Source of the DNA: an uncultured Gammaproteobacteria bacterium
GTDB lineage: Bacteria; Patescibacteriota; Patescibacteriia; UBA1558; S5-K13
Direction of reading: 5' to 3'
DNA: 64,000 nucleotides
Assembly: GCA_964640635.1 (NCBI GenBank)
Contig: CAZXFD010000001.1
Coordinates: forward strand, 177,302-241,301
The position numbers and the translations under genes are program-made. Below are positions 29,896-60,596 of this stretch, one piece after another; within the stretch, counting starts at the first letter, position 1, and every line of letters begins with the position of its first letter. The notes beneath the pieces were generated by a model. That model was not told the DNA's origin. It saw only the letters and a list, made by a program, of their open reading frames with translations, and made no database searches.

Positions 29896-29936
29896 TTATT
29901 CTCCCTTGTTTTATGTTTTCGTGCTATTGAATCTTT

Positions 29937-30355
29937 TCAGAAAATCTTCAAAGGCTTTTGCTCTTTTTCTGCTATTGTAGCAATGTCATTTATAGAAAGT
30001 TTGTCATATGGAAATTTTTTGCCAAAACTTGTTCTAAAGTTTTTGTTGGATGTGACAGAAATGCTTAGATTAAAGCATATGAAGTGTTCTAGTTTTTTGA
30101 TTTTTATTGATTTTGTACCGCGCTCTTCTTTGAACCCATCAACAAAGCTTATGAATAGATCTCTTTTGTCCCAAGGAATTGTTATAGTACAAAACTTTAT
30201 TCCAAAAATAAATTCTCCGCCGGAAAATTTTCCCTTGAAGTCCTTTTCAAATAAATCTTTAAAACCACCGTCTTTAAAGGTCGCATGGAAATAAGCTAAA
30301 TCTTTTTTCCATTGGGCTTTAGTGCTACGTGAGATTGTGTTTCATTAGTTTTCAT
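29937..30355 (-). pseudogene. Frameshifted gene: GGAGGA Shine-Dalgarno plus ATG, 19 codons, then a 135-codon ATG-less continuation in the -1 frame across an A_AAA_AAG heptamer
   Basis: Manual minus-strand translation gives MKTNETQSHVALKPNGKKI*. Slipping -1 at AAAAAAG (plus coordinates 30303-30309) continues as DLAYFHATFKDGGF...KPLKIF. Confidence 0.45.
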
Positions 30356-30460
30356 TTTTCCTCCTACTATAGTTTATTAATAATGAATATTATATATTTT
30401 TTAGTGTTTTGTCAATTTATGAAAGAAAGATGCTATAATAAATGTATTATTAAATAGAGT

Positions 30461-31021
30461 ATGGAAAATGAGTTAATAGAAAAATCTGATGAAGAATTGG
30501 TTGCGATGACCTTGTTCAATAAGGAGTCTTTTGTATTTTTGGTAAAAAAATATGAAAAACAATTATTGCGATATATTCTTAGAATTTCAAATATTTCTCA
30601 CGAAGAGGCAGAGGATGCTTTGCAGGAAGTATTTATAAAGGTTTATAGAAACTTAAATGAATTTGACAAGAGTCTTAAGTTTTCATCTTGGATCTATAGA
30701 ATAGCTCATAATGAAACAATAAATTACTATAGAAAATCAAAGGCAAGGCCAGAAAAAATTGAGCTAAATGAGGATTCGGATTTGATAGAAAATTTAATGT
30801 CAGATTTAAACACAGAACATGAAATAGATAATAAAATATTAAGAGATAAATTATTAAAAATATTAGATTCAGTAGATATAAAATACAAAGAAGTAGTATA
30901 TTTAAAATTTTTTGAAGAAAGAAGCTATGAAGAAATTTCAGATATATTAAAAAAACCCATAGGAAGTGTATCTATTCTTATAAGTCGTGCTAAAAAGAAA
31001 TTAAAAAAATTATTAATATAA
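30461..31021 (+). CDS. ECF-type RNA polymerase sigma factor
   Basis: Region 2 (LQEVFIKVYRNL...WIYRIAHNETINYYRK) and region 4 (SYEEISDILKKPIGSVSILISRAKKKL). Confidence 0.8.
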   Translation: MENELIEKSDEELVAMTLFNKESFVFLVKKYEKQLLRYILRISNISHEEAEDALQEVFIKVYRNLNEFDKSLKFSSWIYRIAHNETINYYRKSKARPEKIELNEDSDLIENLMSDLNTEHEIDNKILRDKLLKILDSVDIKYKEVVYLKFFEERSYEEISDILKKPIGSVSILISRAKKKLKKLLI

Positions 31022-31026
31022 AAATT

Positions 31027-31788
31027 ATGTCATTACAAGATAAATTATTAGAAAAAATCAAGAACATAAAACCAAGATCAAAATCATATTTTATTATAAA
31101 AAATATTTTGTATTGGTTGTTCTTTGTTGTTTTTGTGATTGTTGGTGCAGTTTCTACTTCTATTATTATTTTTATTGCAAAACATAATGATTGGGATATT
31201 CATCGATATGCAAATGATAGTATGTTGTCTTTTTTCTTTTTAACAATTCCATATATTTGGGTTTTTGTATTGCTAGTGTTTGTTGTTCTAGCATATTACA
31301 ACTTGAAACGCACCAAGAGGGCATATAAATATAAACTTTATAGCATTGTTTTATCCAGTATATTTTTAAGTATTGTGCTGGGTTTTATTTTGTATAATAT
31401 TGGTTTTGCGAAAACAATACAAACTTCTCTAGTAAAAAATATTTCAAGTTACAATAAAATGTTTTGCGAAAGAGCATCTCTCTGGCATCGGCCAGAGCGG
31501 GGAGTGATTGTAGGTCAAATAAAGGAGATAAATAATAATGAATTCATATTACAAGATCCTTATATGGAAAATTGGACAGTTATTTATGATAAAAATTTAG
31601 TTGGTATGAGTGATTTAATGATTGACAACAAAATAAAGGCATTAGGTTATCAAAAAGAACAAAGGAGTTTTTTTGCGGCTGAAATAAGAGAGTCTAGTTG
31701 TGGCTGTGGACATATCAATTGTAAATGTGGGCAAAGTGAAACAAAAATAAATAATATGCGTAATAATAAGTGTGGAGCTAATAATTAA
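31027..31788 (+). CDS. Polytopic membrane protein with a C-terminal Cys cluster, candidate anti-sigma partner of the ECF sigma
   Basis: 4 TM helices then a soluble domain ending SSCGCGHINCKCGQSE...NKCG. Separated from the sigma gene by a 5-nt gap. Confidence 0.45.
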   Translation: MSLQDKLLEKIKNIKPRSKSYFIIKNILYWLFFVVFVIVGAVSTSIIIFIAKHNDWDIHRYANDSMLSFFFLTIPYIWVFVLLVFVVLAYYNLKRTKRAYKYKLYSIVLSSIFLSIVLGFILYNIGFAKTIQTSLVKNISSYNKMFCERASLWHRPERGVIVGQIKEINNNEFILQDPYMENWTVIYDKNLVGMSDLMIDNKIKALGYQKEQRSFFAAEIRESSCGCGHINCKCGQSETKINNMRNNKCGANN

Positions 31789-31792
31789 TTTT

Positions 31793-31808
31793 TCTCGCAG
31801 TGGCGGGA
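31793..31808. repeat. GC-rich hairpin TCTCGC-agtg-GCGGGA, ending 8 nt before the ATG of the Cys-rich mini-protein gene
   Basis: Seen directly. Member of the CCGCCA-N-GGCGG hairpin family. Confidence 0.6.
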
Positions 31809-31816
31809 CAAAAAAA

Positions 31817-32111
31817 TATGCAAAATAAACACGTAGTATTTGTATCAGCAGCAGCACTTATTCTAACGATGGGAATAGTCGGCATTACAAATGCCTATTC
31901 ACTTTCAAAGAATAAAACAGTAAGCACAGAAACAGTAGAAAAATGTTCTTGTGGTTGCAACAAAGATAAGAAAGATTGCTCTTGCAATGGAACGGGTTCT
32001 TGTTTAAATAAACAAAATAAGAATAAAGGAGTTGGTGTTACATGTGGATCTAATAATGTTGAAAGTGGTGCTGGAGGTGCCAAAAAAAGTTGTGGATGCA
32101 AAACCCAATAA
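31817..32111 (+). CDS. Small secreted/membrane-anchored Cys-rich protein
   Basis: N-terminal hydrophobic segment then CSCGCNKDKKDCSCNGTGSC...CGSNN...CGCK. Confidence 0.5.
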
Positions 32112-32160
32112 TAAATTTTATAACGTTTTTAAAACCCAGTTTCTTGTAAGGGGCTGGGTT

Positions 32161-32850
32161 TTATAATATATCTATTTTTTGTATCGTTTTGTATTTGCCT
32201 ATTTTGATATCTCCTAGGTCTAGTTTTCCTATTTTTATTCTTACAAGACTCATTACCTCACATTCAATAGCTTGCATCATGAGTCTTATTTGTCTTTTTC
32301 TTCCTTCGTAAATAGTGATATGTAGTAGTGCTGTGTTTTTGTTTTGTTTTATAATTTTTACAATTGCAGGGAGTGTTTTTTTGCGCTCTATGATTATGCC
32401 GTTTTGTAATTGAGAAATTTTATTTCTATCAATAAATCCTTTAACAAAGACTTCATATGTTTTTGCAAGTTTATATTTTGGATGTGTCAGTTCATTTGCA
32501 AAATCTCCATCACTAGTAAGAATTAATAATCCTTCGGAATCATAGTCTAGTCGGCCAATATATTTTAGATCTTGAAGTTTTTCTGGTAATAATTCATATA
32601 TTGTTTTTCTACCAAATTCATCTATGCGACTGACGATATAATTTTTTGGTTTATTAAGTGCTATATAAATATTGGAAGTTGTGTTTTTCAAAATTTTACC
32701 ACCATATTTTACATAGTCATTTTCATTTATTTGAGTAGATAGATCTTGGCAAACTTTTCCATTTACAATAATTTCGCCATTTTTGATGAGCTCCTCAACG
32801 TTTCGGCGTGAACCAAGATTACATTTAGCTAAAAATTTATTTATTCTCAT
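32161..32850 (-). CDS. RsuA/RluB-family pseudouridine synthase (S4 domain plus catalytic domain)
   Basis: S4 N-terminus MRINKFLAKCNLGSRRNVEELI. Catalytic motif GRLDYDSEGLLILTSDG. Confidence 0.85.
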   Translation of the reverse strand: MRINKFLAKCNLGSRRNVEELIKNGEIIVNGKVCQDLSTQINENDYVKYGGKILKNTTSNIYIALNKPKNYIVSRIDEFGRKTIYELLPEKLQDLKYIGRLDYDSEGLLILTSDGDFANELTHPKYKLAKTYEVFVKGFIDRNKISQLQNGIIIERKKTLPAIVKIIKQNKNTALLHITIYEGRKRQIRLMMQAIECEVMSLVRIKIGKLDLGDIKIGKYKTIQKIDIL

Positions 32851-51147: not shown

Positions 51148-51720
51148 ATGAATAGATTAAAAATAGAAAAATTAGCACTCTATAAGATTAAGGCTGGGCA
51201 ACTAGATGCTTTCGCAGATCTTTATGATTTATATTATAAGCAAATTTATAGATATATTTATTTCAAAGTTCCCACAAAAGAAAAGGCAGAAGATCTTACA
51301 AGTGATACTTTTTTAAAATGTTGGGAATATATCAACAAGCACGAAAACGCTATAAAGAATTTTCAAGCCTTTATCTATCAGGTAGCTAGAAATCTTATAG
51401 CAGATTTTTACAAAAAGCCCAAGGAAAACCAGCTTCCTATTTTTGATGAAAAAGACGAAGCAATACAAATAGAGGACACAGATTTTACCCAAAACCTAGA
51501 ATTATTGTCAGATTGGCAAATTTTAGAAAAATCACTGCGAGTATTAGGCAAAATCAATGGAAAATGGCAAGAAGTAGTACTTCTTAAACATATTGAAGGA
51601 TTTTCAATAAATGAAATTGCCAACTTATTAAATGAATCAAAGTCAAATGTGAAAGTCTTAATTCATAGAGGTATGGAAAAACTCAAAGAAATAGCCAATA
51701 AAGACATCAAAGAAGATTAA
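51148..51720 (+). CDS. Sigma-70 family (ECF-like) RNA polymerase sigma factor
   Basis: Region 2 FLKCWEYI...FIYQVARNLIADFYKK. Region 4 SINEIANLLNESKSNVKVLIHRGMEKLK. Confidence 0.8.
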   Translation: MNRLKIEKLALYKIKAGQLDAFADLYDLYYKQIYRYIYFKVPTKEKAEDLTSDTFLKCWEYINKHENAIKNFQAFIYQVARNLIADFYKKPKENQLPIFDEKDEAIQIEDTDFTQNLELLSDWQILEKSLRVLGKINGKWQEVVLLKHIEGFSINEIANLLNESKSNVKVLIHRGMEKLKEIANKDIKED

Positions 51721-52221: not shown

Positions 52222-52258
52222 CCAACCCGGGGTTGACTATTCGGCAACCCCGGGTTGG
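52222..52258. repeat. Perfect 14-bp inverted repeat (CCAACCCGGGGTTG, 9-nt spacer, CAACCCCGGGTTGG), each arm itself palindromic, in the divergent intergenic region
   Basis: Seen directly. Strongly GC-rich. Can fold as one long hairpin or two small ones. Confidence 0.6.
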
Positions 52259-52361
52259 GGTTTCAAGGTGTAACCTTTTCCCATTAAACCCGTCTTACTA
52301 TATAGAGAAACATATCTCTACAAAACAAAAACAAAAAAATAAGCCTAAAAACAACAATATT

Positions 52362-53435
52362 ATGAAAGACACTGACATATTAAAAAATTTAAAAGACTTC
52401 AAAGACATAGAGCCGGATGAAAAGTGGTACCACGTCAACCGCTCTATTTTGTTAAACATTATAGATCGTGATTCTGTAACAAAGGAATCGTTTAGCCTAA
52501 AGAGAGTATTTTTTGGGTTTTTGCTTGTATTTAGAAACATGATGCCAAACTGGAAAGTAGCTCTATCAAGCTTTGTAGCAATAGTAATGGTCGGTGGTAG
52601 CGTATTTGGAGCAAGCGCATCTATTCCAGGACAAGCACTTTACCCAGTAAAGCTTGCTACAGAAAAAATTGAAATCAGTCTTGCAAAGGACGAAGTATCA
52701 GAAACCAATATTAGACTCAAGCATATTGATAATAGAATAGCAGAAATTAACAAACTTTCTTCAGATGAGGCTCAAAAGCACATAGAAAGCATTACAGCAA
52801 ATATTACCGAAAATCTAAACAATGTTCAAAACTCACTCAAAACAATAGAAAAAAGTGATTCTGTCAACAATAAAGACATTGTTAAGCTAGCTCAACTAGT
52901 CGACGAGAAAACAATCAATGCTACAAAAGCAATAAAAGGAATTAGTTCTGACTCTGTTTCAGCTACCGAAATTGCAACGCTAGGAAATCAAGTTAGCCAA
53001 AAAGCTCTTGAAGTCATCATAGATAAGACTGGTGAGGAATCAAAAGAAGTCATTGAAAACAGTCTAAACAACAAAATTCAATTACAAGAAGAAAGAGCAA
53101 CTGCTGTTACAGCAAAGATAAATGAAGTTACAAAAGCAGATGATTCTAAGGTAATTGTTAAATCTACAAGTACAGACCCAAATATTGAATTTAATATAGA
53201 TCAATTAAAGAAAATAGATCCAACGGAAATTGACAAATATTTGAAATCAGCAAAAGAGCTTATATCCCTCGGTAATTACAAAGGAGCTCTTATAGAACTA
53301 GAAAAAGCACAATTTTCTCTAGACTTATCAGATAAAGCACTAGATTCTGTTATAAAAGATGGATATAAAAAAGATATTGAAAATATAGAAAAAAATATAA
53401 AAGAAATAGAAAACAAAGACACCTTGAAAAATTAA
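52362..53435 (+). CDS. Membrane protein with a DUF5667-like coiled-coil ectodomain (anti-sigma-factor-like)
   Basis: Cytoplasmic N-terminus, TM helix, then LYPVKLATEKIEISLAKDEV...IRLKHIDNRIAEI. Located beside an ECF sigma gene. Start set at MKDTDIL. Confidence 0.5.
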   Translation: MKDTDILKNLKDFKDIEPDEKWYHVNRSILLNIIDRDSVTKESFSLKRVFFGFLLVFRNMMPNWKVALSSFVAIVMVGGSVFGASASIPGQALYPVKLATEKIEISLAKDEVSETNIRLKHIDNRIAEINKLSSDEAQKHIESITANITENLNNVQNSLKTIEKSDSVNNKDIVKLAQLVDEKTINATKAIKGISSDSVSATEIATLGNQVSQKALEVIIDKTGEESKEVIENSLNNKIQLQEERATAVTAKINEVTKADDSKVIVKSTSTDPNIEFNIDQLKKIDPTEIDKYLKSAKELISLGNYKGALIELEKAQFSLDLSDKALDSVIKDGYKKDIENIEKNIKEIENKDTLKN

Positions 53436-60404: not shown

Positions 60405-60596
60405 ATGTTAGACTCAAATGATATATATAATATAACAGAATCTATTGATAGAAAAATAGAGCAAAGACTTGAAGATTTCCAAGAAAAAGTTATTTCAAAA
60501 GATGATTTATATAAATTAAAAGAAGATATAATGTATAGCGTAAAAGAGGAGTTGAATAATTTTTATGATAAGGTAAAAGAACTTTTAAATAAATAA
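60405..60596 (+). CDS. Small coiled-coil protein (63 aa)
   Basis: Amphipathic helix. N-terminal theme (MLDSNDIYNI..IDRKIEQRL) is shared with the small proteins at 62741 and 63235. Confidence 0.4.
   Translation: MLDSNDIYNITESIDRKIEQRLEDFQEKVISKDDLYKLKEDIMYSVKEELNNFYDKVKELLNK

Follow-up and report, generated by a model that had tools for sequence, protein, structure and literature searches.

What signal does the sigma factor of the extracytoplasmic function (ECF) type encoded near the middle of this DNA answer to, and what roles fall to the two genes that follow it? The DNA is a 64-kb stretch of contig CAZXFD010000001.1 (positions 177,302 to 241,301), called here the window; it has a GC content of 30%. 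A sequence-only reading had described, in order, a sigma gene, a gene for a polytopic membrane protein with clustered Cys residues, and a gene for a small Cys-rich exported protein (the mini-protein), and it had proposed a metal- or redox-sensing ECF module. The three co-oriented genes are real and form one operon, and they can be read as a three-gene ECF sigma module of an uncultured, ultra-small member of Patescibacteria (the candidate phyla radiation, CPR), in which the Cys-x-Cys (CxC) tail of the membrane protein and the secreted mini-protein may sense a thiophilic metal or thiol stress outside the cell; the chances of this proposal are put at about even. From the earlier proposal, the three-gene module and its co-conserved Cys residues were retained, and an anti-sigma role is strongly suggested; the choice of ligand still draws on composition, topology and a single HMA gene. 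The matter is of some consequence for these organisms, which have tiny genomes and few regulators, and about whose sensing of their surroundings almost nothing is known.

The sigma factor and its membrane partner

Regarding the first gene, its product belongs to the ECF (group 4) sigma-70 factors, as had been read from the sequence: it matches Pfam Sigma70_r2 (PF04542, residues 27-94, 7.7e-18) and Sigma70_r4_2 (PF08281, residues 129-181, 3.3e-11), it scores 6e-31 with TIGR02937 (107 bits against a cut-off of 42.9), and the Pfam scan of its 186 residues gave no match to a sigma-3 domain. The nearest named NCBIfam models are SigW and SigM, both under their equivalog cut-offs; for SigW (NF007223 / TIGR02948), the scores were 98.1 bits against 209 and 87.4 bits against 243. 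The literature searches that were run turned up no publication dealing with such sigma factors in Patescibacteria or Parcubacteria, and the main text of the ECF reclassification paper makes no mention of them.

As for the membrane protein, its gene starts 5 nt after the sigma gene and its C-terminus, reading ...SSCGCGHINCKCGQSETKINNMRNNKCGANN, carries Cys residues, both as described before; the four transmembrane (TM) segments given in the same description are instead three, by hydropathy and by the AlphaFold2 (AF2) model, whose helices span residues 19-53, 66-94 and 98-125. Seven Lys/Arg residues lie in the N-terminus and six in loop 2, which is free of acidic residues, and loop 1 is net acidic; this distribution of charges places the N-terminus and loop 2 inside, and the oligonucleotide/oligosaccharide-binding (OB) domain and the Cys tail outside. 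The predicted extracytoplasmic domain is a five-stranded closed beta-barrel like that of solved OB folds, and the tail behind it is predicted to be disordered, with a predicted local distance difference test (pLDDT) score below 50. Regarding the side of the membrane on which the Cys clusters lie, a point raised by the sequence-only reading, hydropathy, AF2, charge and the signal peptide of the mini-protein concur, and both clusters are predicted to be extracytoplasmic.

The membrane protein is not recognized by any Pfam or NCBIfam model, and a PDB profile search with 138 representatives of its family gave no significant match. A word-index search with the membrane protein and the mini-protein returned only each protein itself and one close relative, 76% identical in the case of the membrane protein, and a profile query of the same index yielded 23 matches, saturated by hydrophobic words; an exhaustive HMMER search collected 1937 representative clusters, 1564 of them at E < 1e-10. 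All 42 family loci from species-representative genomes lie in Patescibacteria-type metagenome-assembled genomes (Paceibacterota, Falkowbacteria, Komeilibacteria, Buchananbacteria, Parcubacteria and others), some of these records being titled 'uncultured Gammaproteobacteria' or plain 'bacterium'. The family is large and undescribed, and it has so far been seen only in Patescibacteria.

The family consensus starts with a conserved, basic N-terminus (…L.KIK…I.PKPKW.F..K), followed by TM1 and a loop of acidic character (NDWD), then by TM2 (LPYFW) and a basic second loop (AYYN..HTK.GY.Y), and by TM3; the C-terminal soluble part ends with …F.A.EIRP, after which comes a variable tail. Conservation is at least 90% at the N-terminal I11, P16, F22 and W30, and T96 and Y100 of loop 2 are strongly conserved too. 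Some longer members (about 350-380 aa; loci L022, L085/L086 and L094, and proteins P0057, P0108, P0110, P0115, P0131, P0137 and P0148) have an extra C-terminal domain with 12-14 Cys (…C..N.DC.C…C.C…C..VV); in L022 and L085, the longer member is followed by a 622-aa HlyD-type membrane-fusion protein.

The neighborhood of the family was surveyed by calling open reading frames (ORFs) in the fetched loci and scoring them with the hidden Markov model of the family and with the window sigma factor. Of the 104 unique complete family genes, 92 have a sigma gene as their immediate upstream neighbor, 11 others being cut by the contig end and one having none; all upstream sigma genes are orthologous (phmmer E 1e-52 to 1e-113). 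Hence, among the loci with room upstream, 92 of 93 have the adjacent sigma gene, mostly with a gap of 4 nt, a distance typical of translational coupling. Such adjacency is the classical signature of a cognate anti-sigma factor and, because it is nearly universal, the membrane protein is likely to be the anti-sigma factor of its neighbor. Regarding the type of anti-sigma factor, the protein has no class I domain (anti-sigma domain, ASDI, N-terminal, helical and of ~80-90 aa, with HxxxCxxC in its zinc-binding form, ZAS), because only about 25 cytoplasmic residues precede TM1; there was no zf-HC2 or RskA match, and residues 1-26 contain neither His nor Cys. As for class II (CnrY/NepR type, in which a short N-terminal peptide binds sigma-2 and sigma-4), the N-terminus has a compatible length and a strongly conserved motif, and the short peptide of CnrY would be the nearest precedent in mechanism (PMC6851896). 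Two points tell against the main reading of the module: no recognisable anti-sigma domain is present, with a cytoplasmic N-terminus of only about 25 aa, and the overall confidence of the AF2 model is moderate (pLDDT 67).

A second ECF sigma gene, a distant relative of the first (phmmer 2.8e-18), occurs at 51148-51720 (+) of the window; about 0.5 kb downstream, beyond a small opposite-strand gene, a 400-aa protein with one hydrophobic segment is encoded (52233-53435, +), and this could be the anti-sigma factor of the second sigma factor.

Promoters of the module and the third-gene family

The promoter of the module emerged from an unbiased count of pairs of 5-mers and 4-mers at each spacing in 83 upstream regions of orthologous sigma genes. 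The pair AAGAA-N14/15-CGTA was present in as many as 33 regions at one spacing, with no occurrence on the reverse strand; the extended motif reads tGAAGAAA / TGAAAGAAA … GCGTATTA, i.e. TGAAAG-N16-CGTA. In its general form (GAAGAA/TGAAAG–N14-16–CGTA, with GCGTATTA at -10), the motif stands upstream of 54 of the 83 sigma genes, against none on the opposite strand. A position weight matrix (PWM) was then built from these 54 instances, and the window was scanned on both strands (128 kb).

The sigma gene in the window appears to be preceded by this conserved bipartite promoter, as expected of autoregulation, with one mismatch (TGTA). This site, within P1, reads TGAAAGAAA-N-TGTATTA (30420-30449), with a C-to-T change at the otherwise invariant C of the -10 element, and its score of 12.5 is the third best in the window. 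P1 also embeds a housekeeping-type TTGTCA (30409-30414) and an extended -10 element, TGCTATAAT (30431-30439); the relative with 47% identity (L003) has the same TGTATTA variant and the same embedded TGCTATAAT. The second site, P2, is TGAAAC-N16-CGTAATAA (full site TGAAACAAAAATAAATAATATGCGTAATAA); it lies about 50 nt upstream of the ATG of the mini-protein and, with a score of 16.9, it is the only match of at least 14 on either strand of the window. An equivalent site falls between -120 and +200 of the stop codon of the family gene in 79 of the 104 unique loci; stray minus-strand matches across 572 kb amounted to six, all low-scoring (13.3-18.1).

Some caution is due here, since both promoters of the window depart from an otherwise invariant base (CGTA to TGTA in P1, AAGAA to AACAA in P2), and a score like that of P2 is expected by itself 0.22 times per random 64 kb. 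The weight of P2 therefore comes from its position and from its conservation across loci. Considering both the score in the window and the equivalent sites elsewhere, the mini-protein gene is very probably a direct target of the sigma factor and, given that its own promoter sits in the last codons of the membrane gene, it is probably the main local output; that the module as a whole is regulated by the sigma factor is judged highly likely. In Bacillus subtilis, the sigmaW consensus is TGAAAC-N16-CGTA. The promoter of the module is essentially the same, which fits the SigW-like scores of the sigma factor, and the latter is predicted to be sigmaW-like in its promoter preference.

The position of this promoter has a consequence for the protein above it. 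Many family members end with ER[KN]xxx[MT]R[NSI][NI], which is the in-frame translation (GAA AGA AAx … ATG CGT AAT AAT) of the internal promoter: examples are DERKFLEMRSNR in L020, HERKVKGMRIIR in L089, NERNFPDMRNN in L048 and, in the window, SETKINNMRNN (S-E-T-K-I-N-N-M-R-N-N, the translation of P2), and the same holds for L003, L010, L042 and L047, among others. At other loci, the promoter lies just past the family gene, and its TGA is the stop codon (L018, L126). To judge from this correspondence, the conserved C-terminal peptide motif of the family is really a DNA signal; a promoter in coding sequence that poses as a conserved protein motif is a clean example of why annotation by motifs calls for care.

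In ten loci, the ECF promoter occurs a third time, about 1.5-1.9 kb behind the start of the family gene and in front of a lipoprotein gene (L008, L013, L017, L026, L034, L036, L041, L106, L110 and L120). This lipoprotein (LAGC…RPDFGQP…IRGIVKSI.GNEVTILKI…) has no Pfam match and is not encoded in the window; its gene is probably a further regulon member in those genomes, and at some of these loci HlyD-type adaptors follow. In the window, the second-best PWM match (60517-60548, +, score 13.7) lies inside a 63-aa ORF and its score is within chance expectation; it is about 110 nt upstream of the gene of a 672-aa polytopic membrane protein with a helical repeat-like C-terminal part.

Regarding the mini-protein, translation probably starts at the ATG at 31818, the same start that is called on an identical public contig (L002). 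It has a signal peptide (residues 1-26, with cleavage between …ITNA and YS) and a mature part of 71 aa with nine Cys (CSCGC, CSC, SC, TC, SCGC); the hydrophobic N-terminus and the CSCGC, CSCNG and SCGCK motifs reported earlier are present, and the earlier size of 98 aa and count of 12 Cys become 97 and nine. In the majority of loci, the product of the third gene is 115-210 aa long and has a signal peptide, a helical motif (…DYxAW…NFxxF…HxL…GD…A..I..ELG) and a tail that is either Gly/Met/His-rich or of the type F[VI]DxNGDGxCD, and at other loci a lipoprotein takes its place; among 75 scored loci, 47 third genes were helical, 16 were lipoproteins and 12 were of other types. None of the third-gene proteins has a sequence match in Pfam, NCBIfam or PDB.

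Homologs of the mini-protein are found in L001, whose membrane protein is 76% identical to that of the window and whose third gene encodes 108 aa with 11 Cys, and in L003, which with L004 (47% identity) has a third gene of 109 aa with 12 Cys that contains FVDKNGDGKCDC. Among more distant relatives, the third gene of L047 (about 35%) encodes 82 aa with GCGC…FVDANKDGQCDKCGK; that of L048 (about 34%), 160 aa with a signal peptide, the helical domain and GCGC…CGC…C…FIDENKDGQCD; and that of L050 (34%), 173 aa with the helical domain and CHSSCH…FVDANEDGVCDH. The signal peptide of the window mini-protein shares the 8-mer LILTMGIV with the L048 protein, in which the helical domain and a CGC tail occur together. 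From this 8-mer and from the homology to third genes with Cys tails, the mini-protein is the same gene after loss of its helical domain but not of its Cys tail, and thus a shortened member of the conserved secreted family. A C-terminal F[VIT]DxN[GKE]DGxCD recurs in third-gene proteins (L003, L024, L025, L043, L047, L048, L050, L055), and by its sequence it resembles a Ca-binding loop of the DxDxDG type with a Cys.

Table. Positions of the elements of the sigma operon in the window (aa, amino acids; nt, nucleotides)
Feature	Position (nt)	Strand	Remarks
Promoter region P1	30409-30449	+	upstream of sigma gene
ECF (group 4) sigma gene	30461-31021	+	186 aa, no Cys; Pfam Sigma70_r2, Sigma70_r4_2
Putative anti-sigma membrane-protein gene	31027-31788	+	253 aa; starts 5 nt after sigma gene; predicted parts: cytoplasmic N-terminal helix (aa 1-25), 3 TM, extracytoplasmic helical linker, OB fold, disordered Cys tail
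OB-fold domain of membrane protein	31504-31692	+	aa 160-222; predicted
CxCx4CxC cluster of the extracytoplasmic tail	31699-31728	+	C225, C227, C232, C234; side predicted
ECF-type promoter P2	31737-31766	+	inside 3' end of membrane gene
Further tail Cys of membrane protein	31771-31773	+	C249
Stem-loop (earlier 'GC hairpin')	31793-31808	+	6 bp; intergenic/5' untranslated region
Secreted Cys-rich mini-protein gene	31818-32111	+	97 aa, likely ATG start
Terminator-like hairpin	32131-32162	not assigned	common to operon and convergent pseudouridine synthase gene

Two potential hairpins accompany the operon. The one after the mini-protein gene has a 15-bp stem and a folding energy of -19.9 kcal/mol (76-nt stretch folded; z = -3.2), and it marks the end of the operon against the convergent pseudouridine synthase gene. 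The 'GC hairpin' before the mini-protein gene, to which the sequence-only reading had drawn attention, is a 6-bp stem of -7.8 kcal/mol that is not significant (z = -0.6; 54 of 200 shuffles fold equally well) and that no T tract follows; for these reasons, it was ruled out as an attenuator or terminator, and the stem-loop probably has no terminator function. Divergently from the operon, the 71-aa ORF and the frameshifted gene described before are both present on the minus strand; the latter is a remnant (29900-30340) that reads MKTNETQSHVALKPNGKKI up to a stop and then continues as a 134-aa stretch in another frame, has no Pfam match and was passed over by the gene calling of the identical public contig. 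A gene for an HI0933-like flavoprotein also lies upstream of the module.

Cysteine clusters and the nature of the signal

Both clusters are enriched in Cys far above chance: Cys makes up 0.86% of the residues in long ORFs of the window, but 9 of the 97 aa of the mini-protein (binomial p = 2e-7) and 5 of the final 32 aa of the membrane protein (p = 8e-6). The two checks named by the sequence-only reading, conservation of the Cys residues and co-conservation of the three genes, were both run, and neither spoke against its proposal. Among 16 divergent homologs with such a tail, none departs from C225 or C234, and C227 and C232 are conserved to at least 90%; the tail motif IR-x2-3-CxC-x2-5-CxC occurs in 15 of the 138 family representatives, and all nine Cys of the mini-protein are kept in L001. 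Relatives with 76%, 47% and about 34% identity share the order of sigma factor, membrane protein and Cys-rich secreted protein; their flanking genes differ, so that the trio is co-conserved in its own right. Finally, CxC in the tail and CxC in the third protein go together (5/1/0/69 loci with a complete third gene, both motifs being present in five of the six tail-bearing relatives; Fisher p = 3.5e-7), a test that rests on targeted look-ups, because the 122 broadly fetched loci include none with a CxC tail and several of the look-up contigs are too short to show the third gene.

As for the neighbors, in L047, which has a Cys tail, a gene for an HMA protein (CopZ-like, CGGC) abuts the start of the sigma gene, with a degenerate promoter of the same type upstream, and in L003 a Zip transporter gene lies about 1.2 kb upstream of the sigma gene. 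In L047 and L048, both with a Cys tail, a Peptidase_M50B (site-2-protease-like) gene is convergent just after the module; the positions noted for the HMA and M50B genes are 2154-2414 and 4182-4799 in L047 and 4360-4983 in L048.

Several observations weigh against the proposal. About 89% of the family representatives have no Cys tail, and the Cys residues are therefore not needed for the core function; the co-occurrence of the CxC motifs is uncorrected for shared ancestry and comprises about six loci, and a crude neighbor-joining tree, in which the Cys-tail proteins are scattered in ten groups at about 30% identity, does not resolve whether they are one clade. Furthermore, metal-related neighbors occur at only one or two of five Cys-tail loci, and the chemistry of the membrane tail did not match that of the helical third proteins to a significant degree when Met/His, Cys and Pro/Gly counts were compared (rho 0.07-0.29; 0.14-0.18 for Met/His or Cys).

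Taking both sides into account, the proposed mechanism runs as follows. The conserved basic N-terminus of about 25 residues, with the loop between TM2 and TM3, would hold the sigma factor in the cytoplasm, and the OB fold and the CxCx4CxC tail would face outward, with the Cys tail as the input. A metal (of Cu, Zn or Cd type) or a thiol-reactive or oxidative stress would act on the outward Cys clusters, and the tail, once occupied or oxidized, would let go of the sigma factor, which would then switch on the mini-protein from its own promoter; after Sec-type export, the mini-protein may soak up the same stimulus or bind the tail, closing a negative feedback. Between the two kinds of stimulus, a thiophilic metal is favored, if with somewhat less than even confidence, by virtue of the chemistry of CxC, the HMA neighbor and the precedents of CnrYXH and CorE (PMC6851896).

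The signal read by the same clusters might instead be oxidative or thiol-reactive stress, or how far thiols at the cell surface are joined in disulfides; an oxidized tail would then alter the conformation or stability of the anti-sigma factor, and the mini-protein would be a sacrificial extracellular thiol buffer. The predicted outward orientation of both clusters would suit this, as would the even number of Cys in the membrane protein (six), compatible with disulfides, and there are cytochrome b5 and flavodoxin genes upstream in L003 and the flavoprotein gene upstream in the window; thiol-based anti-sigma switches are also established for cytoplasmic ZAS proteins (mentioned in PMC6851896). 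Nonetheless, the HMA metallochaperone in the L047 operon is at odds with it, and no conserved thioredoxin, DsbA-like or peroxidase gene was seen beside the module in the window or in the flanks of its relatives. CxC, moreover, has a poor geometry for a disulfide inside the motif and is typical of metal-thiolate clusters, and a thiol or redox signal is rated as rather unlikely. A similarly low likelihood is given to clusters that are only structural or docking elements, i.e. a disulfide- or metal-stapled knot that joins the third protein to the tail, the real signal being for instance envelope damage or an antimicrobial, as in sigmaW-type regulons. The many representatives in which the Cys tail is missing but sigma factor, OB domain and secreted third protein are all retained can be explained in this way, the lipoprotein and the HlyD-type adaptors in the regulon of other members suggest an envelope or efflux response, and the promoter resembles that of B. 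subtilis sigmaW (TGAAAC-N16-CGTA); yet there would be no reason for CxC runs in both tail and partner unless they had a common ligand or bound each other, the tail is predicted to be disordered, and the HMA gene of L047 points to a metal.

The other two alternatives concern the proteins rather than the ligand. If the membrane protein were a co-transcribed effector, such as a transporter-like or envelope protein, the sigma factor would be controlled otherwise; this would account for the missing ASD, zf-HC2 and RskA signatures, for the very short cytoplasmic N-terminal stretch and for the three TM helices, atypical of anti-sigma factors. It is considered improbable in view of the sigma gene found immediately upstream, at 4-nt gaps, in all informative loci but one, of the strongly conserved N-terminal motif and loop 2, and of the precedent offered by short class II anti-sigma peptides such as CnrY (PMC6851896). 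The sequence-only reading had also considered that the mini-protein is a ribosomally made Cys-rich peptide, that is, the precursor of a ribosomally synthesized and post-translationally modified peptide (RiPP) or a bacteriocin; this idea, in keeping with its small size, its Cys content and a weak resemblance to TIGR04117 (Cys-Xaa-Xaa-Xaa radical SAM target; E = 0.058, with 13.5 bits where the cut-off is 50), did not hold up and is regarded as very improbable. The match is below the cut-off, no maturase gene (radical SAM, cyclodehydratase or lanthipeptide synthetase) or dedicated exporter occurs in the window neighborhood or in the flanks of L001, L003, L047, L048 and L050, the N-terminus is a classic Sec signal peptide and not a leader, and the protein is homologous to longer secreted helical-domain proteins and has its own ECF promoter.

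The reading of the module as an outward-facing metal or thiol sensor could be carried further, to a picture that we hold to be doubtful: the 3TM-OB proteins would be an undescribed CPR-wide class of anti-sigma factors, and the tail and its sigma-induced secreted partner a matched sensing and feedback pair; in the lineage of the window, the two CxC clusters would share one metal as ligand, or would be bridged to each other by metal or disulfides, free ligand would be measured by competition between a secreted sponge and the tail, and the promoter of the partner would reside in the last codons of the anti-sigma gene, the peptide motif ER[KN]xxxMRNN being in truth a DNA signal.

As for its wider meaning, about 1900 representative clusters define a widespread module of sigma factor, membrane protein and secreted protein, in which neither partner of the sigma factor has a relative in Pfam, NCBIfam or PDB, and the promoter consensus offers a way to read the regulon of any CPR genome. 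What is new is a candidate anti-sigma family, so far undescribed, whose OB fold is predicted to be extracytoplasmic and which, in this lineage, is part of a pair of Cys clusters predicted to lie outside the cell. The regulatory logic of the module is ordinary; the idea of paired thiolates is testable. Should the variant with the Cys tail indeed respond to external metal or thiol stress, an ECF pathway would here rely on thiolates beyond the cytoplasm for sensing, which is unusual.

Comparison with known systems

The mature mini-protein recalls metallothioneins, having nine Cys in 71 aa, CxC runs, low complexity and almost no aromatic residues; the likeness rests on composition, and it differs from them in being secreted, in a Cys content of 13%, lower than the classical one, and in lacking a family match. 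CpxP, Spy and ZraP, likewise small and secreted, are what an envelope-stress pathway induces most strongly, and they act back on the sensor of that pathway; ZraP also binds metal. Their position is thus comparable to that proposed for the mini-protein, but they belong to two-component and not to ECF systems, and the third-gene family has no sequence match in Pfam, NCBIfam or PDB.

Regarding metal-sensing ECF systems, CorE-type (ECF44) sigma factors use CxC, between sigma-2 and sigma-4, and a variable, C-terminal Cys-rich domain to sense Cu, Cd or Zn (PMC6851896), and in this they resemble the module; in CorE, however, it is the cytoplasmic sigma factor itself that carries the Cys residues, and an anti-sigma factor is lacking, whereas the sigma factor of the window has no Cys, which sets it apart from ECF44, and the Cys residues are on two proteins predicted to be extracytoplasmic. 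The CnrYXH system of Cupriavidus metallidurans, which senses Ni and Co, combines in one autoregulated operon a sigma factor, an anti-sigma factor of the membrane that binds sigma through a very short cytoplasmic peptide, and, as a separate protein, a largely helical metal sensor in the periplasm (PMC6851896). The module would have the same components in another order (sigma, anti-sigma, partner, against cnrY-X-H), with no sequence homology detected: the third gene has no homology to CnrX (Metal_resist / LTXXQ) by Pfam, NCBIfam or PDB, so that the architecture alone is analogous. Moreover, the putative anti-sigma factor has three TM helices and an OB fold, the partner in the window is a cleaved secreted protein that has lost its helical domain and carries Cys in place of His/Met ligands, and the probable sigma-dependent promoter in front of it hints at an output or feedback element and not at a constitutive co-sensor.

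Finally, the SigW-RsiW pair of B. subtilis shares with the module the type of sigma factor, SigW being the best match among the named NCBIfam models, the TGAAA(G/C)-N16-CGTA promoter and a membrane gene directly after the sigma gene. The score of the sigma factor is far under the SigW equivalog cut-off (98 against 209 bits), and RsiW is a single-pass, zinc-binding class I anti-sigma factor, unlike the membrane protein of the module, which has neither an ASD nor HxxxCxxC but has three TM helices and an OB fold predicted outside. In conclusion, the closest known systems are CnrYXH in architecture and SigW in the type of sigma factor and promoter.

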